Source: Candidatus Limimorpha sp.
GTDB lineage: Bacteria > Bacteroidota > Bacteroidia > Bacteroidales > F082
Direction: 5' to 3'
NCBI GenBank assembly: GCA_041842465.1
Contig: JBGYXG010000040.1
Location: 1,788-65,787 of the forward strand
Length of the DNA: 64,000 nt
Shown here: in pieces, positions 3,738 through 19,526 of the stretch
Layout: every line of letters begins with the position of its first letter
Numbering within the stretch: the first letter of the stretch is position 1
Translations under genes and position numbers: made by a program
The notes under the pieces: generated by a model
Databases searched by the model: none
Told to the model about the DNA's origin: nothing
Seen by the model: only the letters and a program-made list of their open reading frames with translations

Positions 3738-5090
3738 ATGTTTCAAAAGATGATCAGAGCCAGCGTGAAAATGGTACAACGCTGGTTGCCCGAACCTTTT
3801 ATTTTTGCTATTTTATTGACTTTCATTGCTTTTGTGGTAGCAATGCCGGTATGTCGTCAAACACCTTTAGAGGTGCTTGAACATTGGGGCAACGGGCTGT
3901 GGGGGCTGCTTGAGTTCGCCATGCAGATGGCTTTGGTATTGGTGTGCGGCACCACTTTGGCTGATGCTCCATCCGTCAGGAGAGGGCTGAACTTCATGGC
4001 AGGGCTGCCTCAAAAACCTGCTGGAGTCATTGCATTAGTGTCGTTGGTGTCGGCCATCGCCTGTTGGATCAATTGGGGCTTTGGACTGATCGTGGGAGTG
4101 GTGTCCGCTAAGGAAATCGCCCGCAAAATGAGTGGAGTCGATTACCGTTTGCTCATTGCGGCAGCCTATAGCGGTTTTGTGGTTTGGCATGGCGGACTGT
4201 CAGGATCCATACCGTTGGCATTGGCCACATCAGGGGCTTCGCTTGAACGGACCACGATGGATGTAGTAACGGAAGGCATCTCCATTTCGCAGACTATTTT
4301 TGCACTTCCCAACCTGTTGATTTCTGTTTTAGTCATCTTGTCGTTAGTAGTGGTCAATGCACTGATGCATCCCAAGCGTGACAGGGTGGTGGAGATTGAT
4401 AGGAAGCTGCTGACCGAAGAAGATGTTTTGGAGCATGTTGTTCCCGTAACGCCGGCCGAAAAGATGGAGCACAGCGCTTTGCTGGGCTATCTGGTAGCCA
4501 TCATGGGGTTGGGCTATCTGTTTTTGAGGCTCTTTGTGCGAGGTGGACATCTCGATTTGAATGGCGTCATTATGCTCTTTCTATTTTTGGGCATTATCTT
4601 GCACAAAACTCCCATCAATTATGTGAAGTCACTCACCAAAGCCGCCGTGGGAAGTGCGGGCATCATACTGCAATTTCCTTTCTATGCGGGCATTATGGGC
4701 ATCATGGTGGGCAAATCGGCCGATGGGCTTTCGCTGGCAGGTGCAATCAGCAATTTGTGCATTTCCATTTCCAATCAATATACTTTTCCTCTGTTGACTT
4801 TTCTGAGCGCAGGCATTGTCAATGTCTTTGTTCCGTCAGGAGGAGGTCAATGGGCGGTGCAGGCACCGATCATGATGCCTGCGGGTCAGGCATTGGGCGT
4901 TTCTCCTGCCATTACGGGAATGGCCATCGCCTGGGGCGATGCGTGGACCAACCTGATACAGCCTTTCTGGGCGATACCCGCATTGGCTATCGCCAAGTTA
5001 GGCGCCAAGGACATCATGGGCTATTGTCTTGTCAACCTGATTGCTACCGGATTGATTATCTGTGCAGGACTGTTGATTTGGGTGATGTAG
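3738..5090 (+). CDS. short-chain fatty acid transporter (AtoE family)
   Basis: Polytopic membrane ORF. The N-terminus MFQKMIRASVKMVQRWLPEPFIFAILLT resembles AtoE-type proteins. Confidence 0.75.
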   Translation: MFQKMIRASVKMVQRWLPEPFIFAILLTFIAFVVAMPVCRQTPLEVLEHWGNGLWGLLEFAMQMALVLVCGTTLADAPSVRRGLNFMAGLPQKPAGVIALVSLVSAIACWINWGFGLIVGVVSAKEIARKMSGVDYRLLIAAAYSGFVVWHGGLSGSIPLALATSGASLERTTMDVVTEGISISQTIFALPNLLISVLVILSLVVVNALMHPKRDRVVEIDRKLLTEEDVLEHVVPVTPAEKMEHSALLGYLVAIMGLGYLFLRLFVRGGHLDLNGVIMLFLFLGIILHKTPINYVKSLTKAAVGSAGIILQFPFYAGIMGIMVGKSADGLSLAGAISNLCISISNQYTFPLLTFLSAGIVNVFVPSGGGQWAVQAPIMMPAGQALGVSPAITGMAIAWGDAWTNLIQPFWAIPALAIAKLGAKDIMGYCLVNLIATGLIICAGLLIWVM

Positions 5091-5263
5091 AAGGAAGGGG
5101 AATTTCATATAATGTGTTGTGTTACTTGCTGTTGCGATCTTAGCAACAGGCGTTTACATTAAACGTTATTGGCGGCTCCCGCATTTTGACATGCACTTTC
5201 CATTCTCAAAAGTTTTGTCGTTCGCTAAGGAAGATTAGAAGGGTATATTTGTGGAAAAAAGTC

Positions 5264-5271
5264 TATCTTTG
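5264..5271 (+). promoter_or_regulatory. -7 box TATCTTTG for the exonuclease gene
   Basis: Exact TAnnTTTG match 20 nt upstream of the ATG at 5291. A second match, TATATTTG, lies at 5244..5251. Confidence 0.4.
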
Positions 5272-5290
5272 TATTTCAATTTATTTGAAT

Positions 5291-5875
5291 ATGTCCGAGG
5301 AACCACTAAATGGACTTGCCGTTAAACATGTGCGAAAACCGGCGCACCCGAAGCAGCCGGTCAGCTATATCCCTGACCGTCATCTTGTCGATTTTGCCGC
5401 TATCGATTTCGAGGCAGCAAACGGTAAAATTACGAGTGCTTGCAGTGTGGGTGTTGTCATTGTGCATGAAATGGAAATCGTGGATCGTTTTTATAGTTTG
5501 ATAAAACCTGTTCCCAACTATTACGACTTTTACAATAGCAAGGTGAACGGTTTGCACAAGGCTGATACCGACAAAGCTCCTGATTTTGCGCAGGTGTGGA
5601 GTCAGGTGGCGGATAGGGTGGAGGGGCTTCCTTTTGTGGCACACGGCATGTTGTTCGACCAGCGTTGCCTGAAAGCACTTCACGCCTACTACCACATCAA
5701 GTACCCCAATTATCCCTTTTATTGCACCCATGTCGGCGCCACAACACTTGTTCCCGGACTGGATAACTACAAACTCAAAACCGTCGCCCTGCATTTTGGC
5801 TACGACTTGACCCATAAGCACCATGCCCTTGCCGATGCCGAAGCCTGTGCAGTGATTGCGATGCACATATTTTAA
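5291..5875 (+). CDS. 3'-5' exonuclease, DEDDh / DnaQ-epsilon-like
   Basis: Exo I-like motif FAAIDFEAAN and a terminal HHALADAEACA (the H-x4-D motif of the DEDDh family). Confidence 0.8.
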   Translation: MSEEPLNGLAVKHVRKPAHPKQPVSYIPDRHLVDFAAIDFEAANGKITSACSVGVVIVHEMEIVDRFYSLIKPVPNYYDFYNSKVNGLHKADTDKAPDFAQVWSQVADRVEGLPFVAHGMLFDQRCLKALHAYYHIKYPNYPFYCTHVGATTLVPGLDNYKLKTVALHFGYDLTHKHHALADAEACAVIAMHIF

Positions 5876-6022
5876 TTTTAAAGCCTGCTCGTTATGGACT
5901 TTTATGAACGAAATCGATTTGTTTTTGTCGAAGTATCGCGTTGAAAATCAATTATATGCGATTATTGTCTAAAAAATAGATAAAAACATATCGATTATGT
6001 GTTGTGGTTCATAAAAAAGACG

Positions 6023-6030
6023 TATTTTTG
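6023..6030 (+). promoter_or_regulatory. -7 box TATTTTTG for rex
   Basis: Exact TAnnTTTG match 37 nt upstream of the ATG at 6067. Confidence 0.4.
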
Positions 6031-6066
6031 CAGCGTGGATGGGATCAAACCAAAACGAAAAAATAA

Positions 6067-6735
6067 ATGAAAAATGATGAACAAGCATCTTTGGTTATGT
6101 TGAAATCGACTATGAGCCGTTTGCCGATGTATTATCATTATCTTGAAGAGAGGCACGCAGAAGGTGCGGTTTCAGTTTCGGCATCTGAAATTGCTGAGCG
6201 ATTGAATCTCAATCCGGTACTCGTTCGGAAAGATATTGAATTGGTAAGTTCTGTGATGGGGAAACCCCGTGTTGGATTTAACCTTGAGCAGTTGCTGACT
6301 GACTTTCGCGATTATTTGGGTTATGACAATGTGAACGAATCGGTGCTTGTCGGAGTAGGAGGGCTGGGGCGCACCCTGCTTTCTTACGAAGGTTTTGGCG
6401 CATTCAGTTTGAATATTGTGGCCGGCTTCGATGTCAACAAGGATCTTTACGGCATACGCATCAATGAAAAACCGGTGCTCCCGATGGAAAAACTTCCCGA
6501 CATCATCCACCGTCTCAACATCCATATTGGCATTATCACAGTGCCGAAAGCAGAAGCACAAAAAGTTTGTGATACCCTTGTAGGATGCGGCATTAAGGCG
6601 ATTTGGAATTTCGCGCCGGTATCTCTCAACGTGTCAAGTGGCATATTGCTGAAAAATGAAAATCTCGCCGCATCGCTGGCGTCATTGTCCCAGAGGTTGT
6701 ATCAAAAAATGGACTCCGAAGGTTTTAAAGAATAA
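6067..6735 (+). CDS. rex: redox-sensing transcriptional repressor Rex
   Basis: Winged-helix N-terminus (SRLPMYYHYLE...GAVSVSASEIAERL) followed by a Rossmann segment VLVGVGGLGRTLL, as in Rex proteins. Confidence 0.9.
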   Translation: MKNDEQASLVMLKSTMSRLPMYYHYLEERHAEGAVSVSASEIAERLNLNPVLVRKDIELVSSVMGKPRVGFNLEQLLTDFRDYLGYDNVNESVLVGVGGLGRTLLSYEGFGAFSLNIVAGFDVNKDLYGIRINEKPVLPMEKLPDIIHRLNIHIGIITVPKAEAQKVCDTLVGCGIKAIWNFAPVSLNVSSGILLKNENLAASLASLSQRLYQKMDSEGFKE

Positions 6736-6904
6736 ATCAATCGCATTTTTTAGAAAAAAAAGAGTTAATGGTTTCATTGTCAGGTAGAAAAGCGACATTA
6801 AATCGATAAAAATATATTGTATAAACGTCTAATTAATTCAGTATTAGGTAAAAGGTCCAAGATCATATTATAGTTAACCATATTCAAATAAAAATTCAAC
6901 TATC

Positions 6905-8122
6905 ATGAAAAGATTCACGTTACCGCGTGATTTGTATCACGGAGAAAATGCACTGGAAGCATTAAAGACATTTACTGGAAAACGCGCTGTTATTTGCGTC
7001 GGTGGTGGAAGCATGAAACGTTTCGGTTTTCTTGACAAAGCCATTGCTTATCTCAATGAAGCCGGAATGGAAGTCAAAGTCATTGACGGTATCGAACCCG
7101 ATCCGTCTGTCGATACAGTGATGAAAGGTGCTGTCGTCATGCAGCAGTTCCAGCCCGACTGGATCGTAGCCATTGGAGGAGGATCGCCCATTGACGCAGC
7201 CAAGGCCATGTGGATTAAATACGAATACCCGAATGTCACATTTGAAGACATGTGCAAGGTGTTCGGATTGCCCAAACTGAGGACAAAAGCCAAGTTCTGT
7301 GCGGTGTCTTCTACTTCTGGAACTGCTACCGAAGTGACGGCTTTCTCCATCATTACGGATTATCAGAAAGGCATCAAGTTCCCGATTGCCGACTTTGAAA
7401 TCACTCCTGATGTGGCTATCGTTGACCCTGCTTTGGCGCAGACTATGCCTAAGAAATTGGTTGCCCACACGGGTATGGATGCCATGACACACGCCATAGA
7501 AGCGTATGTTTCTACAGCAAATTGCGATTATTCAGATCCTTTAGCTATCTTTGCAATTAATATGATACAACGAGACTTGGTGAAATCGTATAACGGCGAT
7601 GTTGAAGCTCGTAATGCCATGCACAATGCCCAATGTTTGGCGGGCATGGCGTTCTCGAATGCATTGCTGGGCATCGTTCACTCCATGGCTCATAAGACGG
7701 GTGCCATTTTTGCGGACCACGGCGCACATATCATTCACGGTGCTGCCAACGCCATGTATTTGCCCAAGGTCATTGCCTTCAACGCTAAAGACCCTGTGGC
7801 GAAAAAGCGTTACGGCGTCATTGCCGACTATATGAGATTAGGCGGTAACAACGATGACGAAAAGGTGGCGTTGCTTATTCGCGAACTGCGAAAGATGAAC
7901 GACGACCTGAATATTCCGCATTGCATCAAGAATTATGGGGCGGATTCTTTCCCCTGCGAACAAGGTTTCGTGCCGGAGAACGTTTTCTTGGAAAGACTGC
8001 CTGAGATTGCCAAAAATGCAATCGGCGATGCTTGCACGGGTTCCAATCCCAGAATCCCGACGCAGCATGAGATGGAAGAACTGCTGAAGTGCTGTTATTA
8101 CGACACGGAAGTCGATTTCTGA
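6905..8122 (+). CDS. iron-containing (group III) alcohol dehydrogenase
   Basis: GGGSPIDAAK and TGMDAMTHAIEAY...HSMAHK metal/NAD motifs of Fe-ADHs (butanol or propanediol dehydrogenase-like). Confidence 0.9.
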   Translation: MKRFTLPRDLYHGENALEALKTFTGKRAVICVGGGSMKRFGFLDKAIAYLNEAGMEVKVIDGIEPDPSVDTVMKGAVVMQQFQPDWIVAIGGGSPIDAAKAMWIKYEYPNVTFEDMCKVFGLPKLRTKAKFCAVSSTSGTATEVTAFSIITDYQKGIKFPIADFEITPDVAIVDPALAQTMPKKLVAHTGMDAMTHAIEAYVSTANCDYSDPLAIFAINMIQRDLVKSYNGDVEARNAMHNAQCLAGMAFSNALLGIVHSMAHKTGAIFADHGAHIIHGAANAMYLPKVIAFNAKDPVAKKRYGVIADYMRLGGNNDDEKVALLIRELRKMNDDLNIPHCIKNYGADSFPCEQGFVPENVFLERLPEIAKNAIGDACTGSNPRIPTQHEMEELLKCCYYDTEVDF

Positions 8123-8332
8123 CGCGGTAGGATGAAATAATCCATTAGCGTTCCCGAATCAGGGAGCGGAAGTCAGTGGGGATCTGTTACCGTAGTATGG
8201 GAATGGGAGTTCTCTCCTGACTTCTGCTTTCTGATCCGTTTGCATTTGACGGGGTAGGCACGGCTCAAGAATCGGAGTGTTGACAAGACAAACTCGAAAA
8301 TAAACATTGGTACAAAACATTGAATTGACAAA

Positions 8333-8623
8333 ATGAATATTAAAGTCTGCGTGGGCAGTTCCTGCCATCTGAAAGGTTCCTACGATGTGATCGAGGCCTT
8401 CAAGGAAATCCTGAAAAAGTATGACGTGGAAGATCTCGTCGAGTTACAGGCGAGCTTTTGTCTTGGTTATTGTGCGCAAGGAGTGACCGTCAAATTGGAC
8501 GGCATGGCGCAGCCTTTTGTTGAAAAGTTAGGAAAGGACGAAGTGTTTCTGCACAATTTCAACAAGGACAATGTCGAGGAGTTTTTTGTCAAGGACATCT
8601 ATCCGTTGATCAATTTGAACTGA
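8333..8623 (+). CDS. small 4-Cys thioredoxin-like [2Fe-2S]-ferredoxin-type protein
   Basis: 96 aa. Motif C.GSSCHLKG ... FC...C. It is a paralogue of 17876..18133. Confidence 0.7.
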   Translation: MNIKVCVGSSCHLKGSYDVIEAFKEILKKYDVEDLVELQASFCLGYCAQGVTVKLDGMAQPFVEKLGKDEVFLHNFNKDNVEEFFVKDIYPLINLN

Positions 8624-8636
8624 AAAAGAAAACACA

Positions 8637-10343
8637 ATGTCGGATTTTTTAGAGTTCCGGGATGCACAATGCAGAGATTGCTACAAATGCTTGCGCGAGT
8701 GTCCGGTAAAAGCAATTGATGTGAAAAACCATCAGGCGAAGATTATTGAAGATCGCTGTATTTTGTGCGGTCACTGCACTTTGGCATGTCCGCAGAACGC
8801 CAAAGTCGTCCATAGCGAATTGGACGATGTGAAACGTCTGTTGGATAGCGGTCAAAAAGTGATCGCAAGTGTAGCACCTTCTTTCATTTCAAGTTTTGGT
8901 CTGAAGGATTTCACCATTTTCAAGATCGCGCTGGCAAAGCTGGGTTTCGCCGATGCTGAAGAGACAGCGGTCGGCGCTCAGGCCGTTGTGAAGGAATACA
9001 AGCGCTTGCTGGAAACGGGTGAGTTTGAGAATTTCATCACTTCGTCATGTCCGGCAGCTTGTCGCATGATCCAGGAATACTATCCGAAAGCGTTGAAATA
9101 TCTTGCTCCCGTCGATTCGCCCATGGTGGCTCATGCCAAGCTCATCCGCAAACGTGATCCGGAAGCGAAAATCGTATTCATTGGACCATGTATTGCAAAA
9201 AAACGCGAGGCAGTTGAGTGTACGCTCATCGAAAATGTGCTGACATTTGAAGATTTGCAGCTTTTCTTTAAAGAACGCGGTATCAAGCTCGAAGAGATTT
9301 CCGAATTGCACCTTGACCAAAAAGGTGGAGCTGCCAATCTGGCAAAATCGTTCCCCATCAACCACGGTATTATCAATTCGTTCGACATCTTGCCCAAAGG
9401 TTACGAATACATTTCAGTAGATGGTCCGGAACGTTGTAGCGAAGCCCTTGAAAACATCGAGTTTTTGTCGCATGTGTTCTTGGAAATCAATATTTGCGAA
9501 AATGCCTGTGTGGCAGGTCCGTGTTCGCTTCAAGTGAAAGGCGGCAGCGTCAAGGCCATGTCCGAAATTCGGAAATATGTGCGCCGTGAAAGAGAGCTGT
9601 TCCCCTCGTTAGATGACACCCCGTTGGAAGTGAATCTGTTTGCTTCCTATCCACGTATCCGCAGCCATAGCATTGTTGCCCCCGAACGCGACATTGAGGC
9701 GATATTGCACCGGACGGGCAAGATGACCCGTTCCGATGAACTCAACTGTGGCGCCTGCGGCTACAGCACTTGTCGCGACAAGGCATGGGCGGTGTACAAT
9801 GGATATGCCGACGTGGAGATTTGCCTGCCCTATATGCGGCAGCGTGCGGAATCGCTTTCGTATGAAATCATCCAGAAAAGCCAGGAAGGCGTCATCGTTC
9901 TCGATGCCGACATGAACATCGTGGAAGTCAACAACAAGGCCAAAGAGCTGCTCGCCATCGATGCGGTGGATGTGAAAGGTCGTCCGGCCCTCGACTATTT
10001 CAAGCCTATCGATTTTATGAACGCATACAGCCAGAAACGTCATGTTATGGTCAAGGATATGTTCATTCCTTCCACGATGAAGCATGTGGACATTTCCATC
10101 AATTATCTTGAAGGACAGGACATGCTGTTTGGCGTTCTCAAGGATGTCACCGACATCATCCATTATGACAAGGAAATCATGAAGGTCAAGATGGAAACGC
10201 TGGCAACCACAGATGAAGTGATTAAGAAACAGATGCGCGTGGCTCAGGAAATCGCATCGCTTTTGGGCGAAACGACGGCCGAGACAAAAGTGGCGCTGCT
10301 GAAACTGAAGAAAACCTTGACATCGGATCAAAATGGACAATAA
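8637..10343 (+). CDS. hydS: sensory-type [FeFe]-hydrogenase-like protein with C-terminal PAS domain (HydS-like)
   Basis: Two CxxCxxCxxxCP motifs. The H-domain motifs are divergent: TSSCPAA, GPCIAKKRE, ICENACVAGP. There is an extra CGACGYSTC..C cluster motif, followed by a PAS-like segment (QEGVIVLDADMNIVEVNNKAKELL). Confidence 0.85.
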   Translation: MSDFLEFRDAQCRDCYKCLRECPVKAIDVKNHQAKIIEDRCILCGHCTLACPQNAKVVHSELDDVKRLLDSGQKVIASVAPSFISSFGLKDFTIFKIALAKLGFADAEETAVGAQAVVKEYKRLLETGEFENFITSSCPAACRMIQEYYPKALKYLAPVDSPMVAHAKLIRKRDPEAKIVFIGPCIAKKREAVECTLIENVLTFEDLQLFFKERGIKLEEISELHLDQKGGAANLAKSFPINHGIINSFDILPKGYEYISVDGPERCSEALENIEFLSHVFLEINICENACVAGPCSLQVKGGSVKAMSEIRKYVRRERELFPSLDDTPLEVNLFASYPRIRSHSIVAPERDIEAILHRTGKMTRSDELNCGACGYSTCRDKAWAVYNGYADVEICLPYMRQRAESLSYEIIQKSQEGVIVLDADMNIVEVNNKAKELLAIDAVDVKGRPALDYFKPIDFMNAYSQKRHVMVKDMFIPSTMKHVDISINYLEGQDMLFGVLKDVTDIIHYDKEIMKVKMETLATTDEVIKKQMRVAQEIASLLGETTAETKVALLKLKKTLTSDQNGQ

Positions 10344-11505
10344 GCTGGAGCAGTGCATCGAGTTTGGCTATACCGCGCTGAATCATGTCGGTGAGGAGCT
10401 CTGCGGCGACAATGTCGCTTGCAGTGTCAATGGCGATTGCACCACCTTGGTGCTCGCCGATGGCTTGGGAAGCGGCGTGAAAGCCAATATCCTTTCCATG
10501 CTGACATCCAAGATCCTTTGCACCATGGCGTCCAACGACATTGACGTGCACGAATGTGTGGAGACCGTCATCCAGACTTTGCCCGTGTGTAAAGAAAGAG
10601 GCGTGGCCTATTCCACGTTTTCATTGATCCATATTAATAATGCGGGAGAGGGTTATCTTTTCGAGTTCGACAATCCTCGGGCTATACTGTATCATCACGG
10701 GAAATGCTGCGACATGGAGCGCGAACTGTTGCATGTGTATGATAAAAAGGTGTTCAAGACAGACCTCCATCTCGACGAGGATGATATTTTGTTAGTGATG
10801 TCGGATGGTACCATACATGCCGGTATCGGTCAAATATTGAATTTCGGTTGGGACAGACTGCAAATCATGCAGCATCTCGACGAAAATATCCGTCCGGGCA
10901 TGTCGGCACGCGCCGTGGCCTGTCTGCTCGATACCGCCTGCAACGACTTGTATCTTGACAAACCCGGCGACGACACCACGGTGGCTGCCATCAAGCTGCG
11001 CCGACGCATTGATGTCAACATCATGGTGGGGCCACCCGTTGATAAGGAAAAGGATGATTACTACGTGGAGCGATTCTTGGAAGGCGACTCGAAGAAAATC
11101 GTGTGCGGCGGCACCAGTTCCATCATCGTGGCACGTTATCTCGGTACCGAGGTGAAAACCAGCTTTGATTTTCCCGACCGTGATGTGCCGCCCATCGGTT
11201 TCATCAAGGGAATCGACTTGGCTACTGAGGGCGTGCTTACTTTGAGGCGTCTGTTGGAAATGTCGGATAAATACCTGTCTATCACTGATTTGACACCGAA
11301 GGTGTTTACGAAAAAGGATGGAGCTTCCTTGCTTGCCGATTTTCTGTTTGAAAGAGCTACGCATATCCGGTTTTTCGTTGGGCAGAGTGTCAATGCGGCG
11401 CACCAAGGGCTGCCCATCGACACTACGATGAAATTAAAGCTGATAGAAACGCTTTCTAAGAATTTAATAAAAATGGGGAAAAAAGTGGAAATAAATTACA
11501 ATTGA
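10333..11505 (+). CDS. PP2C/SpoIIE-family protein phosphatase with an unassigned C-terminal domain
   Basis: Motifs CGDN, LADGLGSGVKANI, MSDG and GDDTTVAAIKL. The start overlaps the hydS stop by 11 nt. Confidence 0.85.
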   Translation: MDNKLEQCIEFGYTALNHVGEELCGDNVACSVNGDCTTLVLADGLGSGVKANILSMLTSKILCTMASNDIDVHECVETVIQTLPVCKERGVAYSTFSLIHINNAGEGYLFEFDNPRAILYHHGKCCDMERELLHVYDKKVFKTDLHLDEDDILLVMSDGTIHAGIGQILNFGWDRLQIMQHLDENIRPGMSARAVACLLDTACNDLYLDKPGDDTTVAAIKLRRRIDVNIMVGPPVDKEKDDYYVERFLEGDSKKIVCGGTSSIIVARYLGTEVKTSFDFPDRDVPPIGFIKGIDLATEGVLTLRRLLEMSDKYLSITDLTPKVFTKKDGASLLADFLFERATHIRFFVGQSVNAAHQGLPIDTTMKLKLIETLSKNLIKMGKKVEINYN

Positions 11506-11530
11506 ATATAACAACTTAATAATTGACATT

Positions 11531-12364
11531 ATGTACAAAATCGTTAAAAAAGAAGAGTTAAATGCAAATGTTACGCTAATGGACATTGAAGCTCCATTAA
11601 TTGCAAAAAAAGCAGAACCCGGTCAGTTTATCATGCTTAGGGTTGATGAAGAAGGAGAACGCATTCCGCTGACAATAGCTGATTTTGACAGGCAAAAGGG
11701 GACTGTTACGATTATTTTCCAAATAGTAGGTGCCACTACGGAAAAGCTGAATCATTTGAAAACAGGTGATTATATTGCTGACTTTGTGGGTCCTTTGGGA
11801 AGAAAAACCGAAACAGACGGAATTAAAAAGGTGGCAATAGTTGGCGGAGGGGTAGGCTGTGCCATTGCATATCCTGTTGCGAAGAAATTTCATGAATTAG
11901 GCGTTGAAGTACATTCAATTATTGGTTTTAGAAGTAAAGACATCATCATCTTGGAAGACGAGTTCAGAGCTGTTAGCGATAAAATCATCATTACAACCGA
12001 TGACGGCAGTAATGGCAATAAGGGATTTGTTACCGATGCCCTGAAAAGCTTGTTAGACAGTGGTGAGAAATACGACGAGGTCATCACCATCGGACCTCTT
12101 ATCATGATGAAGTTTATCAGCAAGCTTACAAAGCAGTACAATGTAAAAACCAGAGCGAGCATGAACCCCATCATGGTTGATGGTACGGGCATGTGCGGAG
12201 GATGCAGATTGACGGTAAATGGCGAAACCAAGTTTGCCTGTGTTGACGGGCCGGAATTTGATGCTCATGCTGTGGATTTTGATGAAGCGATTGCCAGAAC
12301 GCAGATGTATAAAACGTTTGAGCAAGGTGCAAGAGAAAAAACATGTAACTTATATAAAAAATAA
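11531..12364 (+). CDS. nfnA: NfnA-type FAD/[2Fe-2S] subunit (sulfide/dihydroorotate dehydrogenase-like)
   Basis: FNR-like fold with a C-terminal GTGMCGGCRL...C cluster motif. It directly abuts the next gene. Confidence 0.85.
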   Translation: MYKIVKKEELNANVTLMDIEAPLIAKKAEPGQFIMLRVDEEGERIPLTIADFDRQKGTVTIIFQIVGATTEKLNHLKTGDYIADFVGPLGRKTETDGIKKVAIVGGGVGCAIAYPVAKKFHELGVEVHSIIGFRSKDIIILEDEFRAVSDKIIITTDDGSNGNKGFVTDALKSLLDSGEKYDEVITIGPLIMMKFISKLTKQYNVKTRASMNPIMVDGTGMCGGCRLTVNGETKFACVDGPEFDAHAVDFDEAIARTQMYKTFEQGAREKTCNLYKK

Positions 12365-13774
12365 ATGAAAGGGATTAGCATGATTAATAATTCATTGAAA
12401 AAAAACGAAATGCCAACGCAACCGGCAGATGTAAGAAATAAGAATTTTTCGGAAGTTGCATTAGGATATACAGAGGAGCAGGCCATAAACGAAGCGCAAA
12501 GATGCTTGAATTGTAAAAAAAGACCTTGTGTTTCGGGTTGCCCGGTAAATGTATTTATTCCTGATTTTATTAGCGAAGTGGCAAAAGGTGATTTCGAGGC
12601 GGCTTATCAGATAATCAGCAAAACAAATTCTCTGCCTGCCGTGTGCGGCAGGGTTTGTCCCCAGGAAAGCCAGTGCGAATCCAAATGTGTCAGAGGTGTT
12701 AAAGGTGAGCCGGTAGCTATTGGACGACTTGAACGTTTTGTCGCTGATTGGCATAATAAGAATGCGAATAACGAAATTGAAGCTCCTCAGTCAAACGGAC
12801 ATAAAATTGCTATTATCGGCTCCGGTCCTTCCGGTTTGACCTGTGCGAGCGACCTCGCTAAACTCGGTTACGATGTGACTGTTTTCGAGGCTTTCCACGT
12901 TGCAGGAGGTGTGTTGGTATATGGAATACCTGAATTCAGACTTCCAAAGGAAATCGTGAAGAAGGAAATCGAAGGGTTGAAGAAACTTAACGTGAAAGTG
13001 CAAACCAATATGGTGGTGGGCAAAATATTGTCAATCGATGAACTGTTTGACGAATACGGATACAAAGCCGTTTATATTGGTAGTGGTGCCGGATTGCCGA
13101 AGTTTATGAATATTCCCGGCGAAAACCTTAAGGGCGTGTATTCTGCCAACGAGTTTTTGACCCGTATCAACTTGATGAAAGCTTATAAGCCTGATAGCGA
13201 TACTCCTATCATTCACAGTCAAAGGGTTGCCGTTGTAGGAGGAGGAAACGTAGCTATGGACGCAGCCCGCTGCGCAAAACGTTTAGGTGCTGATGTGCAT
13301 ATTGTTTATAGAAGATCAGAGGCCGAATTGCCGGCAAGAGCCGAAGAAGTTGAACATGCAAAAGAAGAAGGCATCGTTTTCAATTTGCTGACCAATCCCA
13401 TCGAAATATTAGGCGATGAAAATGGAATGGTAAACGGAATGGTTTGCCAGAAAATGAAACTTTCCGAACCCGATGCTTCGGGACGTGCAAAACCGGTCCC
13501 GATGGAGAATAGCAATTTTAACATTGATGTTGACTGTGTGATTATGGCTCTTGGAACTTCACCTAATCCGTTGATTAAGAGTACGACCAAAGGCTTGGAT
13601 ACCCAAAAGTGGGGTGGAATCATTACCGATGAAAACGGTTTGACATCTCGAGAGGGCGTTTACGCTGGTGGTGATGCCGTAACAGGTGCAGCAACGGTTA
13701 TCCTTGCAATGGGGGCCGGAAAAAAAGCTGCTGAGGCAATAGATAAATATGTGACAGAAAAATACAATAAATAA
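12365..13774 (+). CDS. nfnB: NfnB-type NADPH-dependent glutamate-synthase-small-chain-like subunit
   Basis: Cluster motifs CLNCKKRPCVSGCP and CGRVCPQESQCESKC, then IAIIGSGPSGLTCA and VAVVGGGNVAMD dinucleotide folds. Confidence 0.9.
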   Translation: MKGISMINNSLKKNEMPTQPADVRNKNFSEVALGYTEEQAINEAQRCLNCKKRPCVSGCPVNVFIPDFISEVAKGDFEAAYQIISKTNSLPAVCGRVCPQESQCESKCVRGVKGEPVAIGRLERFVADWHNKNANNEIEAPQSNGHKIAIIGSGPSGLTCASDLAKLGYDVTVFEAFHVAGGVLVYGIPEFRLPKEIVKKEIEGLKKLNVKVQTNMVVGKILSIDELFDEYGYKAVYIGSGAGLPKFMNIPGENLKGVYSANEFLTRINLMKAYKPDSDTPIIHSQRVAVVGGGNVAMDAARCAKRLGADVHIVYRRSEAELPARAEEVEHAKEEGIVFNLLTNPIEILGDENGMVNGMVCQKMKLSEPDASGRAKPVPMENSNFNIDVDCVIMALGTSPNPLIKSTTKGLDTQKWGGIITDENGLTSREGVYAGGDAVTGAATVILAMGAGKKAAEAIDKYVTEKYNK

Positions 13775-13818
13775 AACATTTCAGATAGCAGTTTTTAATA
13801 ACAAAAATTCAAGAAATC

Positions 13819-14298
13819 ATGTCGGAAAATTTTGATTTTACGATTGTAAACAAAATAGTGGACGATTTGGGAGCTTCCGAAAGTTCAACTATTGCGATAT
13901 TACAATCCATACAGGAACATTACAGGTATTTGCCGAAGGAAATATTTCCGCATCTATCGGAAAGATTGAACATCAGTGAGGCTAAGATTTTTGGTGTCGC
14001 TACGTTTTATGAAAACTTTTCGTTAGAGGCAAAAGGAAAATATTTGATTAAAGTTTGCGATGGAACCGCATGTCATGTTAGAAAGTCGGTCCCGATTCTC
14101 AACGCGCTGCGTAACCATTTGGGACTTAGCGAAACCAAAAAAACAACGGACGACATGCTGTTTACTTTAGAAACGGTTTCTTGCTTAGGTGCTTGTGGAT
14201 TAGCCCCGGTCATGACGATTAACGATGAAGTGTTTCCAAGCATGACCCCCGAAACAGCGACTCAGATTATTAAGGATTTAAAGGCTAAGGAGGAATAA
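13819..14298 (+). CDS. hydC: NuoE-like [2Fe-2S] subunit of an NADH-linked [FeFe]-hydrogenase
   Basis: CDGTACHV ... SCLGACGLAP motif. Confidence 0.9.
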   Translation: MSENFDFTIVNKIVDDLGASESSTIAILQSIQEHYRYLPKEIFPHLSERLNISEAKIFGVATFYENFSLEAKGKYLIKVCDGTACHVRKSVPILNALRNHLGLSETKKTTDDMLFTLETVSCLGACGLAPVMTINDEVFPSMTPETATQIIKDLKAKEE

Positions 14299-14300
14299 GT

Positions 14301-16178
14301 ATGTTTTTAAAGAACAGAGAAGATTTACAAAAGCAAAGAGCTGTTTACGAACATTCTGTCAAATTGTGTAAAAAAAGCATCATCGTTTGTTGCGGAACAG
14401 GTTGCTTGTCGGGTGGCGCTTTGAAAATATACGATAAGCTCAAAAGTCTATTGGAGGAAAAGAATATTCCGTGTTCAATTGAACTCAAAGAGGACCCTCA
14501 TGGCGATGAAATCGGAATCAAAAAGAGCGGTTGCCACGGTTTTTGCGAAATGGGTCCGCTCATTAGAATTGAGCCGAGCGGATGGCTGTATGTGAAGGTT
14601 AAGCCCGAAGATTGCGAAGAGATTATCGAGAAAACAATACTGAACGGTGAACACATAGAGCGTCTGGCATACAAAAAAAATGGTGTTGTTTATAAAGAAC
14701 AAGAAGAAATTCCGTTCTATAAAAAGCAAACCAGATTAGTTCTCGAACATTGCGGGCACATCGACGCAACTTCAATCAAGGAATATTTGGCGATAGCCGG
14801 ATACAAAGCGCTTGAAAAAGCCTTGTTTGAGATGACTGCTGATGAGATTATCAACGAAATCTCGGAGTCTAAATTGAGAGGTCGCGGCGGCGGCGGTTTC
14901 CCTGCCGGTAAAAAGTGGACTCAGGTGAAATCCCAAAAGTCTTTCCCGAAATACGTCGTTTGTAACGGCGATGAGGGAGACCCGGGGGCTTTTATGGATA
15001 GAAGCATTATGGAAGGCGACCCGCACAGACTTATCGAAGGCATGATGATTGCCGGAATCGCTACAGGTGCAGAGCATGGATATATCTATGTCCGTGCCGA
15101 ATACCCGACAGCGGTTTCCCGCCTTAGATTGGCTATCGAAGAGCTAGAAGCTGTGGGATTGCTTGGCAAAAACATTCTTAACACAGGCTTTAATTTCGAT
15201 TTGCACATCAATAGAGGTGCCGGAGCTTTTGTGTGTGGCGAAGGTAGCGCCCTGACGGCTTCTATCGAAGGAAAAAGAGGAATGCCGAGGGTGAAACCGC
15301 CAAGAACGGTTGAACAAGGCTTGTTCGAAAAACCGACGATTTTGAATAATGTTGAGACGTTTGCCAACGTGCCTATTATTATTACCAAAGGTTCAAAATA
15401 CTATCAATCAATAGGAACGGAAAACAGTCCGGGCACGAAGTGTTTTGCGCTTACGGGAAATATTAGCAACACCGGCTTGATTGAAGTGCCCATGGGAACT
15501 TCGTTGAGAGATGTTATATTTGAAGTAGGTGGCGGAATGCGTGGCGATGTCGGATTTAAGGCGGTGCAAATTGGCGGCCCTTCGGGCGGTTGCCTCACCG
15601 AGAAACATCTCGACCTGCCTTTGGATTTCGACTCTTTAAAGAAAGCCGGAGCCATGATCGGATCGGGTGGACTTGTGGTGATGAACAAAGAGACTTGTAT
15701 GGTGGAAGTGGCGAGATTCTTTATGAACTTCACTCAAAACGAGTCGTGCGGAAAATGCGTGCCTTGTAGAGAGGGTACAAAAAGGATGTTGGAAGTTCTC
15801 GAAAGAATTGTTGCAGGAAATGGTGCAGAAGGCGATATCGAACTTTTGCTTGAACTTGCAGATACAATTTCAAATACGGCATTGTGCGGTTTGGGAAAAA
15901 CAGCACCTTCGCCCGTAGTAAGTACGATTAATAGCTTTAGAGACGAATATGAGGCGCACATATTTGATAAGAAGTGCCCGACCCATACTTGTCAAAAACT
16001 TAAGAAGATACACATCAATCCCGACCTTTGCAAGGGTTGTTCCAAGTGCTCAAGACTGTGCCCTGTTTCGGCAATTTCCGGAAAAGTCAAAGAACCGTTT
16101 GTGATCGATCAGGATAAGTGTATAAAATGTGGTGCTTGTTTAAGTAATTGTCCATTTAAAGCCATAGAGGAGATTTAA
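14301..16178 (+). CDS. hydB: NuoF-like flavoprotein subunit of an NADH-linked [FeFe]-hydrogenase
   Basis: GRGGGGFPAGKKW (FMN/NADH site), ESCGKCVPCREG, and two C-terminal CxxCxxCxxxCP motifs. Confidence 0.95.
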   Translation: MFLKNREDLQKQRAVYEHSVKLCKKSIIVCCGTGCLSGGALKIYDKLKSLLEEKNIPCSIELKEDPHGDEIGIKKSGCHGFCEMGPLIRIEPSGWLYVKVKPEDCEEIIEKTILNGEHIERLAYKKNGVVYKEQEEIPFYKKQTRLVLEHCGHIDATSIKEYLAIAGYKALEKALFEMTADEIINEISESKLRGRGGGGFPAGKKWTQVKSQKSFPKYVVCNGDEGDPGAFMDRSIMEGDPHRLIEGMMIAGIATGAEHGYIYVRAEYPTAVSRLRLAIEELEAVGLLGKNILNTGFNFDLHINRGAGAFVCGEGSALTASIEGKRGMPRVKPPRTVEQGLFEKPTILNNVETFANVPIIITKGSKYYQSIGTENSPGTKCFALTGNISNTGLIEVPMGTSLRDVIFEVGGGMRGDVGFKAVQIGGPSGGCLTEKHLDLPLDFDSLKKAGAMIGSGGLVVMNKETCMVEVARFFMNFTQNESCGKCVPCREGTKRMLEVLERIVAGNGAEGDIELLLELADTISNTALCGLGKTAPSPVVSTINSFRDEYEAHIFDKKCPTHTCQKLKKIHINPDLCKGCSKCSRLCPVSAISGKVKEPFVIDQDKCIKCGACLSNCPFKAIEEI

Positions 16179-16181
16179 GCC

Positions 16182-17873
16182 ATGACACAGAACAATAATT
16201 ATGTAATCATCGATGATATTCCGGTCGAAATCAACGGAGAAAAAAACTTGCTCGAACTCATTCGCAAGATCAACATCCAGCTTCCTACTTTCTGTTACCA
16301 TTCCGAGCTCTCGATATATGGTGCTTGCAGAATGTGTATGGTCGAAACTGACAAAGGAGGATTGGAAGCTGCTTGTTCAACCCCGCCCAAACCGGGAATG
16401 GTAATCAAAACGAACACCGAAAGACTTCGGAAGTACAGGAAAAACATTTTGGAACTGCTGCTTGCAAACCATTGCAGGGATTGTACCATTTGTAGCAACA
16501 ACGGAAAGTGTAAATTGCAGGATTTGGCCATGCGGTTTAATATCAAGTTGGTTCGATATAAAAACACCGCCGAGTTCCCCGACATTGACGCTTCTTCGTT
16601 TAGCATCATGAAAGATGCAAACAAGTGCATCCTTTGCGGTGACTGTGTGCGCATGTGCAACGAAATACAAAACGTCGGTGCTATCGATTTTACGCGAAGA
16701 GGTTCTAAAATGACGGTGAGTACGGCATTTGATATTCCGATTGTGAAGTCAAATTGCGTGTCGTGCGGACAGTGTGCGGCGGTGTGTCCGACGGGTGCCA
16801 TCGTTGTGAAAGACGACACCGAACAAGTGTGGTCGGCCATATCGAATCCGAATTGCAAAGTGACGGTGCAAATTGCCCCGGCAGTTAGAGTCGCTGTCGG
16901 AAAGGAGTTCGGTTTAGGTTCCGGCGTGAATGGAATCGGAAAAATCGTTGCCGCTCTGAAACTAATGGGATTCAACGAAGTTTATGATACTTCGACCGGT
17001 GCCGACTTGACCGTTTTGGAAGAAGCCAACGAGTTTATCAGCAGGGTGGAAAAAGGTGAAAAACTGCCTTTGTTCACTTCTTGCTGCCCGGCATGGGTGA
17101 AGTTCCTGGAAAACAAATATCCTGAGTTTGTTTCCAACGTTTCCACGTGCCGTTCGCCGATGCAAATGTTTGCTTCAATCATCAAGCAACAGGCCGTATC
17201 GGGCGGAAAACGCCATGTCCATGTGGCCATCATGCCCTGTACCGCAAAAAAATCGGAAGCGAAACGCGACGAATTTAAAGTGGATGGAGTTTCGAATGTT
17301 GACTACGTTTTGACGACACAGGAAATCATTCAAATGATCAAAGAGTCGGGAATCGTTTTCGAAGACTTGGAGCCTGAAGCCGTGGATATGGCCTACGGCT
17401 GGATGTCGGGTGCTGCGGTTATTTTCGGCGTGACCGGCGGCGTGACCGAAGCGGTATTGCGCAGGGTCTCAAACAACAAGAGCAACGTCGGACTACGACA
17501 GATTGCATACACCGGCATCAGGGGATTAAATGGCGTGAAAGAAACGACCATTCCTTTCGGCGACAAGCAATTGAGAATCGCCGTAGTGAGCGGTTTGAAA
17601 AACACAACGGACTTGATAGAACGAATAAAAGGCGGCGAGCATTTCGACCTTGTTGAAGTCATGGCCTGCCCCGACGGTTGTATCAACGGAGGTGGACAGC
17701 CTTATGCTACTGCCGAAGAACGTTCGGAGAGAAGCGAAGGACTGTACGCTGCCGATAAGTTGTGCAGCATACGCCGATCGGAAGAAAATCCGCTTATGAT
17801 GTCTTTGTACAACGGAGTACTCAAAGGACGTGTTCACGAATTGTTACATGTGGATTATACAAAAAAGAAATAA
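16182..17873 (+). CDS. hydA: [FeFe]-hydrogenase catalytic subunit (bifurcating-type, trimeric HydABC architecture)
   Basis: Canonical H-cluster motifs TSCCPAW, MPCTAKKSE and EVMACPDGCINGGGQP, with N-terminal 2Fe-2S and 4Fe-4S domains. Confidence 0.95.
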   Translation: MTQNNNYVIIDDIPVEINGEKNLLELIRKINIQLPTFCYHSELSIYGACRMCMVETDKGGLEAACSTPPKPGMVIKTNTERLRKYRKNILELLLANHCRDCTICSNNGKCKLQDLAMRFNIKLVRYKNTAEFPDIDASSFSIMKDANKCILCGDCVRMCNEIQNVGAIDFTRRGSKMTVSTAFDIPIVKSNCVSCGQCAAVCPTGAIVVKDDTEQVWSAISNPNCKVTVQIAPAVRVAVGKEFGLGSGVNGIGKIVAALKLMGFNEVYDTSTGADLTVLEEANEFISRVEKGEKLPLFTSCCPAWVKFLENKYPEFVSNVSTCRSPMQMFASIIKQQAVSGGKRHVHVAIMPCTAKKSEAKRDEFKVDGVSNVDYVLTTQEIIQMIKESGIVFEDLEPEAVDMAYGWMSGAAVIFGVTGGVTEAVLRRVSNNKSNVGLRQIAYTGIRGLNGVKETTIPFGDKQLRIAVVSGLKNTTDLIERIKGGEHFDLVEVMACPDGCINGGGQPYATAEERSERSEGLYAADKLCSIRRSEENPLMMSLYNGVLKGRVHELLHVDYTKKK

Positions 17874-17875
17874 AA

Positions 17876-18133
17876 ATGGTTATAGAAATTTGTATCGGAA
17901 GTTCGTGCCATCTGAAAGGCACCTACAACATCATCCAGACTTTGCAGCACATTTTGGAAGAACGTAAACTGTATGACAGGGTGAATATGAGATCTGCATT
18001 TTGCATGAGAAATTGCGGAGGCGAAGGGGTGTCTGTCTCAGTGAACGGAGAAGTGTACAGTGTTACTCCTGAAAAAGTCGTTGATTTTTTCGACAATACC
18101 ATTGTGCCGATATTAAACGAAGAAGAAGTTTAA
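17876..18133 (+). CDS. small 4-Cys thioredoxin-like [2Fe-2S]-ferredoxin-type protein (second paralogue)
   Basis: The ATG lies 2 nt after the hydA stop. Motif MVIEICIGSSCHLKG...FCMRNC. The listed ORF start at 17762 overlaps hydA and is rejected. Confidence 0.75.
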   Translation: MVIEICIGSSCHLKGTYNIIQTLQHILEERKLYDRVNMRSAFCMRNCGGEGVSVSVNGEVYSVTPEKVVDFFDNTIVPILNEEEV

Positions 18134-18223
18134 ATAACGGACTTGACGTTTTTTATGGGTAATTGTTTGAAGAGGCTGTGTCGAAAAAAAGACCCGGCCT
18201 CTTTTTGATTCCCGTATTTAGGC

Positions 18224-18268
18224 CCTCCGCTCCTGCGCGATGGCATTGCGTGGGAGCGGAGGTTTTTT
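18224..18268 (+). terminator. rho-independent terminator closing the hydrogenase operon
   Basis: 10-bp stem CCTCCGCTCC/GGAGCGGAGG followed by TTTTTT. Confidence 0.7.
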
Positions 18269-18311
18269 ACTATGCGAAGCAAGCGCGGCAGCAAAGGGCT
18301 CGGCTTCTTTT

Positions 18312-18611
18312 TCATTCCTTAATCTCTACATAGAACACCGTCGGGTCGTCGTCTTCGCAAAACGACTCGTCGGTGTAGTATTGTCCGGGCTTGTCGTCAT
18401 CCTGAAAGAGTATCAGCGTCACCTTGTTGAAAGGAATGGGCTGGCCTTTGTCGCTGTATTGCTGGATGTCGGATTCGGTAAGTCCTTCCATCTTCATCAT
18501 TTTCAACATCATGGCTAAATCGAGGTTGACATTGAGCAAATCTTGCTTCCATTCGATGCTGATGACCGCCGTGGTGTACAACTTGAACTTTTTGACTTCT
18601 ATTTTCTTCAT
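18312..18611 (-). CDS. hypothetical small acidic protein
   Basis: 99-aa ORF with no signal peptide and an acidic C-terminus (DDDKPGQYYTDESFCEDDDP). No family recognised. Confidence 0.5.
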   Translation of the reverse strand: MKKIEVKKFKLYTTAVISIEWKQDLLNVNLDLAMMLKMMKMEGLTESDIQQYSDKGQPIPFNKVTLILFQDDDKPGQYYTDESFCEDDDPTVFYVEIKE

Positions 18612-18734
18612 TTTTCGGATGTGTTTTATCCCTGACGGGCATTTTACGGTTCAAAGATGCGAAAAAAAAGGTTTTGTAGGGATTTTATCGTCCAATGTCG
18701 TTCATATTTCCTAATTTTGTCCAACTAAATCAAA

Positions 18735-19475
18735 ATGATCATGCGTAAATTCTTGTTTGTTGCGGCTGCTTTCATGGTATTGTCCGTATCGGGTGCAGCT
18801 CAAACCATTGAGTCGGTGAATGTGTCGAATAGTCCCGACGGTCCTTTTTCGATGACGAAGAACAACGGCAGCCGCCCAATTATTGTAGGAACGGTGGCGA
18901 ATGGCAAGAAAGAGGGCCAGTGGATTGAGTATTTTGAAAGCGATAACTATTTGCCAAACAGAATGATGAGCTATGTGAATGGGAGAAAGAACGGCCTTTA
19001 TGTCGAAATCGACAAGACCGGTGCTTTGGTGCGTAAAGCCGAGTATAAGGATGGCCTCCTTCATGGTGAGTCGTGCACTTGGTATCGCGGCGGTCGTCTG
19101 GCGAAGATGAACACGTATAAGGACGGTCAGATGGATGGCAGTCAGATTATTTGTTATGAAAGGGGCGGCAACCAGGAAGTGGCGAATTACAAGGAGGGGC
19201 AGCGCGACGGCGTGACGACTTGGTATGACGAGAACGGCAAGAAATTGATGACCATTGATTACAAGGCGGGCAGGTTTGAAGGCAAACAGGAAACGTTTTA
19301 TCCGAATGGCAATCTGAAAACCTCAAAGGAATATCATGACAATGTGCAGACTGGCGAGATGCGCGAGTATTATGAAAGCGGTGCGTTGAGGTTGGTTGCC
19401 AGCTTTAAGAACGGTGTGCCGCAGGGTAAGGCCGAAAACTTTGAGGACACGAAGCCGGCCACACCGAAGCCCTAA
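18735..19475 (+). CDS. secreted MORN-variant repeat protein (YwqK-family-like)
   Basis: Signal peptide, then about 7 repeats of the form Y.(D/N)G...G....WY..G. Confidence 0.7.
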   Translation: MIMRKFLFVAAAFMVLSVSGAAQTIESVNVSNSPDGPFSMTKNNGSRPIIVGTVANGKKEGQWIEYFESDNYLPNRMMSYVNGRKNGLYVEIDKTGALVRKAEYKDGLLHGESCTWYRGGRLAKMNTYKDGQMDGSQIICYERGGNQEVANYKEGQRDGVTTWYDENGKKLMTIDYKAGRFEGKQETFYPNGNLKTSKEYHDNVQTGEMREYYESGALRLVASFKNGVPQGKAENFEDTKPATPKP

Positions 19476-19526
19476 TGGGGAGCACAAATGACTAAAAAAG
19501 CGAGGTTCACAGCCCCGCTTTTTGTT

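Follow-up and report, generated by a model that had tools for sequence, protein, structure and literature searches.

The closest described counterparts of the gene cluster analysed here, a row of redox genes in Candidatus Limimorpha sp. (Bacteroidota; Bacteroidales), come from Thermoanaerobacterium, Ruminococcus albus 7 and two species of Clostridium. In Thermoanaerobacterium, loss of hfsB, one of the hfsABCD genes, raises adhE expression and ethanol yield, a high ethanol yield requires HfsD, HydAB and NfnAB, and suppressor mutations were found in hfsB and rex (PMC5707799, PMC11837493, PMC12288451). An eight-gene cluster of R. albus 7, which encodes a ferredoxin-only hydrogenase, AdhE, a group C sensory hydrogenase and a phosphatase, is down-regulated 111-fold when H2 is kept low (PMC6776011). 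Clostridium autoethanogenum has a cluster of Rex, nfn and multimeric [FeFe]-hydrogenase genes, and C. kluyveri a rex...nfn operon (PMC6405883). The Limimorpha row, which we call the island, occupies positions 6067-18133 of the window, that is, of the whole stretch of 64,000 nucleotides that was analysed (contig JBGYXG010000040.1, positions 1,788 to 65,787, forward strand). All positions are window coordinates unless a contig of the genome is named. The genome itself (G000, 2.74 Mb, the focal genome below) is metagenome-assembled.

The cluster is real and conserved, and independent DNA runs carry it. We consider it probable that it is a laterally mobile redox cluster of three known modules that work together. 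The first module is rex and the gene of an Fe-containing alcohol dehydrogenase (ADH), each with a variant Rex-type palindrome upstream. The second is an hfsABC-like, putatively H2-sensing set of a small [2Fe-2S] protein (Trx), the sensor-type hydrogenase HydS and a PP2C phosphatase whose translation is coupled to that of HydS. The third, Clostridia-like NfnAB-HydCBA with a second small [2Fe-2S] protein, sits in the slot that a monomeric ferredoxin-type hydrogenase takes in most genus relatives, in hfsABCD and in R. albus. When NADH/NAD+ rises, Rex would leave its boxes and rex and adh would be transcribed, while read-through from rex/adh would bring transcription into the nine-gene sensor/Nfn/Hyd block. 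HydABC could then dispose of NADH and reduced ferredoxin as H2, and NfnAB could direct the same electrons to NADPH. A build-up of H2 would be perceived by HydS and passed through PP2C to a phosphoprotein, resetting expression or activity. The cluster bears on how fermenting bacteria decide between H2 release and reduced organic products.

All genes of the island lie on the + strand, as an earlier reading of this DNA from the sequence alone had described. That sequence-only reading had counted twelve genes, but a check of the list of open reading frames (ORFs) gave 11, and a scan of the spacers found no further + strand ORF of at least 25 aa. The eight gaps that it reported from 8333 onward (13, -11, 25, 0, 44, 2, 3 and 2 nt) are all exact. 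Its gene names (Rex, Fe-ADH, sensor hydrogenase, PP2C, NfnAB, HydCBA) agree with our domain searches, which gave Pfam, NCBIfam and PDB matches.

The gene order is kept well beyond this strain. In a metagenome-assembled genome (MAG) of a sister Limimorpha (L051), the nucleotides of trx1 to trx2 (8333-18219) are 87% identical to those of the island, those of adh are 78% identical, and there is no nucleotide similarity to the left of adh. The order Rex-Trx-HydS-PP2C-NfnA-NfnB-HydC-HydB-HydA-Trx, without ADH, is found in G428 (locus L046), which belongs to another Bacteroidales family, and in an NCBI assembly (L162), whose HydA occurs on contigs in 65 blocks of the collection searched. An adjacency confined to this strain would have counted against the sequence-only reading, and the neighbourhood comparison shows the opposite: L051, G428/L046 and L162 all conserve it.

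Within the genus the sensor is common and its cargo is different. A close HydS orthologue was present in 11 of 24 sampled genomes. Trx and PP2C flank hydS in all 10 loci whose contigs run past hydS, a hydrogenase of ~480 aa stands 3' of PP2C in all 9 whose contigs run past PP2C, and Rex is either upstream or immediately downstream. The only one of these hydrogenases that was tested is a monomeric enzyme of group B (TIGR04105, 533 bits, cut-off 450). The closest relatives (G002, G021, L053) have the order Rex-(x)-ADH-Trx-HydS, with an ADH ~91-92% identical to the focal one, and where the contig continues (G021, L053) PP2C and a group B hydrogenase come after HydS. Loci of other Bacteroidales families (L023, L048-L050) read Rex-HydC-HydB-HydA-Trx-HydS-PP2C. 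From 185,579 species genomes we took, for a survey across phyla, the 80 loci with the closest PP2C. The pair HydS-PP2C was found in 74 of these, a monomeric hydrogenase next to it in 58, Fe-ADH in 24, Rex in 20, and HydCBA and NfnAB in 4 each; the counts are descriptive only, as many contigs end early and related genomes are not independent. In three genus members (loci L017, L018 and L019; genomes G003, G017 and G005) rex is the last gene of a Trx-HydS-PP2C-group B hydrogenase row and is followed by a Rex box, aspA and nqrA. In G017, frdA lies ~10 kb further on the same contig, which makes a larger redox neighbourhood.

What follows PP2C in the focal genome has its nearest kin elsewhere. No orthologue of the focal HydA above 45% identity was found in 60 same-genus genomes, where the matches are orthologues of a paralogous HydBAC set (contig C39 of the focal genome). 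Of 400 genomes from the order, G428 alone has a close HydA (86%), the others reaching 48-53%. In a collection of 5.8 billion proteins the matches are Limimorpha at 96-100%, a few Bacteroidales at 82-86%, and Clostridia (Lutispora, Anaerocolumna, Mobilitalea, Oscillospiraceae) at 70-76%. Two of the clostridial loci share parts of the island: Anaerocolumna sp. (L164, CP133190.1) has NfnA-NfnB-Rex-HydC-HydB-HydA and a small protein, and a Lutispora-like contig (L165) has Trx-HydS-PP2C-HydC-HydB-HydA and a small protein, with a LysR-type regulator upstream and no Rex. An orthologue of the group B hydrogenase (HfsD/HydA2-like) is absent from the focal genome, the best match being HydS itself at 36%. 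The genome is also without the fused Nfn (open frames of 757-809 aa) of most genus members; its sole Nfn is the split NfnAB of the island, which shares 85% identity with that of G428 but only 63-71% with the genus copies. On the other hand, the focal HydS and PP2C are 73-76% identical to those of genus relatives, as against 61-69% to those of G428.

The simplest reading of these comparisons is that in a few Bacteroidales lineages the group B hydrogenase 3' of PP2C gave way to a Clostridia-like NfnAB-HydCBA-Trx cassette. The gap in identity between cassette and sensor may partly reflect unequal evolutionary rates, which tells against such a replacement. HydS and PP2C evolve fast, being only 64% and 69% identical, respectively, even within genus g3, and therefore the argument for a swap is based on the patchy distribution of the cassette and on its clostridial affinity, not on identity differences alone. 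We also observed that G+C is 0.43-0.45 at nfnB-hydB (window 12000-16000), against 0.47-0.49 in the flanks, and that the GC skew is higher there; this is compatible with a foreign origin of the cassette.

The sensor block begins with trx1 (8333..8623), whose product is a thioredoxin-like protein of 96 aa (PF01257) with four invariant Cys in the position of HfsA. A protein of this type precedes HydS in 74 of the 80 surveyed loci. HydS (8637..10343; PF02906 at 145 bits, PF04060, PF00989 and PF08448) belongs to the sensor-type (group C) [FeFe]-hydrogenases. Besides its H-domain it has two [4Fe-4S] motifs, a PAS domain and a C-terminal Fe-S motif, and it retains all four H-cluster-binding Cys. Its motifs TSSCP, GPC and ICENAC correspond to TSCCP, MPC and MACPDGC of HydA, that is, the proton-relay Cys is replaced by Ser and the two pocket Met by Gly and Asn, as expected for a sensor-type enzyme. 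The altered relay and pocket with the Cys ligands kept, the C-terminal Fe-S motif and PAS domain, and the adjacent PP2C gene are those of the phosphatase-linked group C hydrogenases.

The PP2C/SpoIIE-type Ser/Thr phosphatase (10333..11505; PF07228) has a start that overlaps hydS by 11 nt. Its predicted model (pLDDT, the predicted local distance difference test score, of 88.8) has a PP2C fold with a Z-score of 24. A C-terminal domain of ~165 aa (window 11005-11505, residues 226-390) with the motifs GGTS/T, VPP and TEG is kept in all 39 aligned homologues. This domain has no Pfam match and a protein-atlas look-up gave unnamed clusters only, while its model resembles the Rossmann-like domain of NuoG/formate dehydrogenases at Z 7-10, barely over background.

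Downstream of the phosphatase gene, nfnA (11531..12364) encodes the small subunit of NADH-dependent ferredoxin:NADP+ oxidoreductase (NF004862, 420 bits, cut-off 220; best PDB matches 5jca_S and 4ylf_A) and nfnB (12365..13774) the large subunit (TIGR01316, 602 bits, cut-off 472; 4ylf_B and 5jca_L). The best solved matches are thus Thermotoga maritima NfnAB (4ylf) and Pyrococcus furiosus NfnI (5jca), and the enzyme is a two-subunit Nfn. The hydrogenase genes follow: hydC (13819..14298) for a NuoE-like [2Fe-2S] subunit (PF01257, 164 bits), hydB (14301..16178) for a NuoF-like FMN/NADH subunit, in which the domain search placed one N-terminal [2Fe-2S] and two C-terminal [4Fe-4S] clusters, and hydA (16182..17873) for a catalytic group A [FeFe]-hydrogenase (TIGR02512, 444 bits, cut-off 406). 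HydB matches its best PDB entry, 8a6t_B ('electron bifurcating hydrogenase subunit HydB'), over the full length at 817 bits. HydA has a canonical H-cluster pocket with the motifs TSCCP, MPCxxK and ExMxCxxGCxxGGG, and the three subunits together have the architecture of HydABC (group A3). Against the model of NADH-dependent group A6 HydA (NF040763) the focal HydA scores 677 bits, below the cut-off of 765.

The last gene of the row, trx2 (17876..18133), encodes a second small thioredoxin-like [2Fe-2S] protein of 85 aa. Its match to PF01257 is weak, but it is a paralogue of trx1 with the same four invariant Cys. Homologues 3' of hydA in L162, L164 and L165 show it to be the conserved tail gene of this HydABC subtype. 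We dropped an assignment as HydD of the tetrameric hydrogenases, as Acetobacterium woodii HydD is described as cofactor-free (PMC6288185) and the trx2 product has these four Cys. The HydF maturase is encoded elsewhere in the focal genome. A second HydB-HydA-HydC set (C39:19887-23990, L047), 41-51% identical to that of the island, is a copy common to the whole genus, and a hydrogenase-like ORF of 430-460 aa at C39:12098-13369 falls far under the cut-off of the group B model.

At the left end of the island, rex (6067..6735) is a single-copy gene for an NADH/NAD+-sensing repressor with the winged-helix N-terminal domain (PF06971) and the Rossmann NAD(H)-binding domain (PF02629) of the family, well above the curated cut-off (NF003994, 251 bits, cut-off 130). 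Its GVGGLG is a loop of the GxGxxG type and aligns with that of solved Rex proteins, but its recognition helix and wing are unlike theirs, and we place it in a divergent subfamily. It is only 55% identical to the Rex in the same position of L051 (L051:5810-6460). This may be set beside the nine neighbouring genes, at 87% DNA identity, and the end of nucleotide similarity at adh. This pattern suggests an exchange of the left flank, with rex in it. No donor could be named among the 400 genomes of the order, where the best match is 60-61% identical.

The Fe-containing ADH (6905..8122; PF00465, 148 bits; PF25137, 174 bits) is like the ADH half of AdhE and reached no NCBIfam equivalog cut-off. Its 80-81% identity to proteins of Eubacteriales MAGs suggests that the gene was exchanged between phyla. 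In two of these MAGs (L122, L129) the ADH gene is directly 5' of NfnA-NfnB, and this stretch, which in L122 includes Rex, lies upstream of a Trx-HydS-PP2C-hydrogenase row. The sequence comparison suggests that the association of ADH, Nfn and sensor is recurrent.

The canonical Rex operator TTGTGAA-N4-TTCACAA, allowing up to 3 mismatches, is absent from the island spacers, and its 6 matches in the window compare with 5.6 expected. One of these candidates, with a single mismatch at 50051-50068, is inside a 410-aa minus-strand coding ORF and is probably due to chance. From aligned upstream regions of relatives we derived instead a variant 18-bp palindrome, TCGATAA-N4-TTATCGA, with the layout 7-4-7. 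A position weight matrix (PWM) of this palindrome gives two candidate operators in the island, one at 5977..5994 (22.1 bits), just 5' of the -7 box of rex, and one at 6803..6820 (18.3 bits), 85 nt 5' of the adh start. The palindrome is also 5' of rex in L013, L014, L046, L051, L053, L072 and L162, in six relatives between the -7 box and the rex start codon, and 5' of adh in L013, L051 and L053. We consider it likely that a distinct subfamily of Rex has this palindrome as its operator.

Clostridia-labelled MAGs, L162 and L046 also have the motif 5' of rex or trx-hydS, in many cases as a pair of boxes with an offset of 14 bp. In L162 the double box is directly 3' of the sole -7 box that heads the ten-gene row, and in L046 it is just upstream of rex. 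The Rex proteins encoded beside these boxes share a recognition-helix/wing signature, NPV(L/Q)VRKD...GKPRxGF, unlike that of solved Rex and unlike that of the Rex in the Rex-HydCBA loci of other Bacteroidales families. The link between Rex and the cluster that the sequence-only reading had drawn is borne out at the level of prediction, by boxes 5' of rex and adh and by the double box at the single promoter heading the row in relatives. Of the intergenic regions that it had named as Rex targets, 5876-6066 and 6736-6904 contain the palindromes, but 8123-8332 contains neither an operator nor a recognisable promoter and has a conserved hairpin.

Published Rex operators (TTGTGAA-N4-TTCACAA; PMC2883068) are likewise 18-bp 7+4+7 palindromes, found on or next to the promoters of genes for NADH-reoxidising enzymes and of rex itself, in some cases in tandem with an offset of 14 bp. 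The difference is in the half-site, TCGATAA here against TTGTGAA (PMC2883068) or the clostridial TTGTTAA-N4-TTAACAA type, and we found no description of the variant box in the literature searched. In Anaerocolumna sp. (L164) two rex paralogues flank NfnAB, and the region 5' of nfnA contains a GATAA-type box pair (offset 14 bp) and a TTGTTAA-type box, which would fit two Rex specificities.

The focal genome has 8 sites of at least 18 bits, two of them training sites, against 1.2 in Markov controls. The top sites are 5' of aspA, a thiolase gene (C97:11787), rex, the frd operon (C91:18189), an RnfD/NqrB-family gene (C79:406), an AbfD-like gene (C125:2025; 4-hydroxybutyryl-CoA dehydratase-like, HpaB family), adh and nqrA (C119:4191). 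A predicted regulon of this composition is what one would expect for Rex. The two best non-training sites of the window, 25216-25233 and 25446-25463, are 5' of the gene at 25476-26903 (aspartate ammonia-lyase/class II fumarase family); of the two, one directly adjoins a TAnnTTTG box and one is 13 nt 5' of the ATG. The aspA site is kept in all three relatives tested (G002, G017, G005). The thiolase gene has no orthologue in five relatives tested.

A pattern scan for the Bacteroidota-type -7 box TAnnTTTG found a single exact match in the intergenic spacers of the island, at 6023..6030 (+ strand) in front of rex. A scan for sigma-70 consensus promoters was uninformative for a Bacteroidota genome (30 found, 22 expected). 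The row is closed by an intrinsic terminator at 18224..18268 (+ strand; stem 18224-18262 with 18 pairs, 11 of them G-C, then a T-run), which is the sole long G+C-rich hairpin with a T-tract on this strand in the terminator scan. In this sense it is the only strong terminator, as had been claimed, but a strong hairpin free of a T-tract, a stem-loop of ~78 nt at 8158..8235 (+ strand) in the adh-trx1 spacer, had not been counted. All ADH-bearing relatives have a hairpin in this position too, though not of the same sequence. The stem-loop may act as a partial terminator, or it may stabilise the transcript or take part in its processing. A scan of 5000-19500 against Rfam (E up to 0.1) gave no match, and the spacer therefore contains no known riboswitch or leader. 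Relatives without ADH have a -7 box of their own ~110 nt 5' of trx1, whereas ADH-bearing relatives have none there and have the hairpin instead. Only two metatranscriptome runs had fragments of the island; contigs bridge the trx1/hydS and hydA/trx2 junctions, with nothing over rex, adh, PP2C or nfn.

We favour, with some reserve, substantial co-transcription from adh or rex onward, with read-through attenuated at the hairpin, because the sole exact -7 box is 5' of rex and because ADH-bearing relatives have the hairpin and no -7 box 5' of trx1. It is quite possible, if somewhat short of an even chance, that there are two or three separate units (rex; adh; trx1-trx2) that are merely neighbours. 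The hairpin would then be a terminator, Rex would control rex and adh only, and expression of trx1-trx2 would depend solely on HydS-PP2C signalling and on a promoter that escaped recognition. The kept position of the hairpin and the lack of a Rex-type box in 8123-8332 are consistent with separate units, and the promoter that ADH-less relatives have in front of trx1 shows that the block can be an independent unit. What speaks for read-through is that no ADH-bearing locus has an exact -7 box between hairpin and trx1, that the hairpin is without a T-tract, and that in L162 and L046 the block directly follows rex, with one promoter and a double box. A different doubt concerns the operator itself, which could be the site of another transcription factor. 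We think this unlikely, although the pairing of palindrome and Rex is drawn from sequence, the motif is unlike the published one, and Anaerocolumna carries both box types and two rex genes. The architecture is that of Rex operators, with shared G..AA half-site positions, the motif is directly 5' of rex in both Bacteroidales and Clostridia-labelled MAGs, the genome-wide top sites make up a classic Rex-type regulon, and the associated Rex proteins have their own recognition-helix/wing signature.

Several observations weigh against the mechanism as a whole. A hairpin as strong as that 3' of adh could end most transcripts. The region 8123-8332, the 25-nt gap before nfnA and the 44-nt gap before hydC contain neither a Rex-type box nor an exact TAnnTTTG, and adh has no exact -7 box before it. 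In the metatranscriptomes, contigs reach no more than parts of trx1/hydS and of hydB/hydA/trx2; their depth is 2-6, and they may include DNA. The matrix was built from 11 sites, two of them from the focal genome; the rex box is upstream of the -7 box in the focal genome and downstream of it in relatives; and the frd and nqrA sites are not conserved in the relatives tested, except for the shared aspA/nqrA spacer of G002. The locus encodes no kinase or partner-switch protein, so the output of PP2C is unassigned. Neither a CoA-acylating aldehyde dehydrogenase nor an aldehyde:ferredoxin oxidoreductase (AOR) was found in the focal genome, which is 99.4% complete and whose PF00171 proteins are only a P5C dehydrogenase and an MdlD-like enzyme. 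For this reason the substrate of the ADH is not assignable, and alcohol as an electron sink, which the sequence-only reading had put beside H2, is unproven and weakened as a proposal. It has also to be asked whether HydS is a sensor at all, and not a low-activity catalytic or electron-transfer partner of HydABC/Nfn, with PP2C regulating something unrelated. All four H-cluster ligands are present, no output protein is encoded nearby, and H2 sensing by group C hydrogenases is still termed 'putative' (PMC6776011, PMC12578642). We nevertheless regard this role as improbable, given the substituted relay Cys and pocket Met, the PAS domain, the translationally coupled PP2C gene with the pair kept in 74 of 80 loci, and the altered adhE expression and ethanol yield of hfsB mutants (PMC5707799). 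Finally, the focal genome consists of 129 contigs assembled from a metagenome, which could raise the suspicion of an assembly or binning artefact. The sequencing runs that carry the stretch are labelled oral metagenome; a 21.9-kb contig of one DNA run (X1) spans 5000-19500 with zero differences, contigs from a second study with no relation to it (X5) cover the stretch, with gaps, at >=99% identity, and the sister MAG and three further genomes share the gene order. Such an artefact can practically be discounted.

Trx-HydS-PP2C might be a portable H2-feedback controller with an exchangeable cargo slot, in a cluster that travels with a Rex subfamily of shifted specificity; we offer this joint proposal tentatively. 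Were it true, swapping a ferredoxin-only group B hydrogenase for a Clostridia-derived cassette of Nfn and bifurcating hydrogenase would change the electron sink under H2 control, and in some Bacteroidales and Clostridia the Rex that recognises TCGATAA-N4-TTATCGA would govern a regulon of its own, with aspA, adh and genes of the butyrate pathway and of respiration. The focal locus and its Bacteroidales copies, with the same sensor and different cargo, offer a natural comparison for finding what the sensor controls. The predicted variant box gives concrete targets for electrophoretic mobility-shift assays (EMSA) and a draft Rex regulon for this Bacteroidales lineage.

The sequence-only reading had called the combination of genes unusual, which overstates the case in view of the precedents in R. 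albus (PMC6776011), in hfsABCD (PMC5707799, PMC11837493) and in C. autoethanogenum (PMC6405883), and of the clostridial loci with NfnAB-Rex-HydCBA and HydS-PP2C-HydCBA described above. By published architecture, hfsABCD of T. saccharolyticum and T. thermosaccharolyticum has the same order of small Fe-S protein, PAS-bearing HfsB/HydS and serine phosphatase HfsC, and it is functionally tied to AdhE, Rex, NfnAB, HydABC and the ethanol/H2 balance (PMC5707799, PMC11837493, PMC12288451). The fourth gene is different: hfsD, for a ferredoxin-linked hydrogenase, is replaced here by NfnAB-HydCBA and a small [2Fe-2S] gene. What is more, hfs and hyd are separate clusters in Thermoanaerobacterium, whereas in the focal island rex, adh, nfn and hyd are all joined to the sensor.

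R. albus 7 also has an alcohol dehydrogenase, a PAS sensory hydrogenase, a phosphatase and a hydrogenase in one row, which is co-regulated there. Its sensor stands with a ferredoxin-only hydrogenase and bifunctional AdhE, and its HydABC is encoded elsewhere, while the focal sensor adjoins a HydABC-type enzyme and Nfn, and the focal ADH is without the aldehyde dehydrogenase half. The cassettes of other Bacteroidales families (L023, L048-L050) and of the Lutispora-like contig (L165) resemble the island in having HydCBA, small [2Fe-2S] protein, HydS and PP2C on one strand, with Rex in the former and not in the latter. Compared with these, the order of the island is inverted, with the sensor first, NfnAB lies between PP2C and hydC, an Fe-ADH is added, and Rex differs in its subfamily and in its predicted operator. 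Neighbouring rex, nfn and multimeric hydrogenase genes are shared with C. autoethanogenum, C. kluyveri and Anaerocolumna. In the last (L164), HydA shares 76% identity with that of the island, and its gene is followed by the same kind of small tail gene. These clusters are without the HydS-PP2C sensor and the ADH, and the Nfn of C. autoethanogenum is fused. By analogy, the island physically joins what is a functional network in Clostridia. It differs in the cargo of its sensor, which is Nfn with a HydABC-type enzyme and not a ferredoxin-only hydrogenase, in having a stand-alone ADH and in its variant of the Rex box. The cluster is not a new kind of system: its modules were known before, and their arrangement here is a modest novelty of a sort that recombination would be expected to produce.

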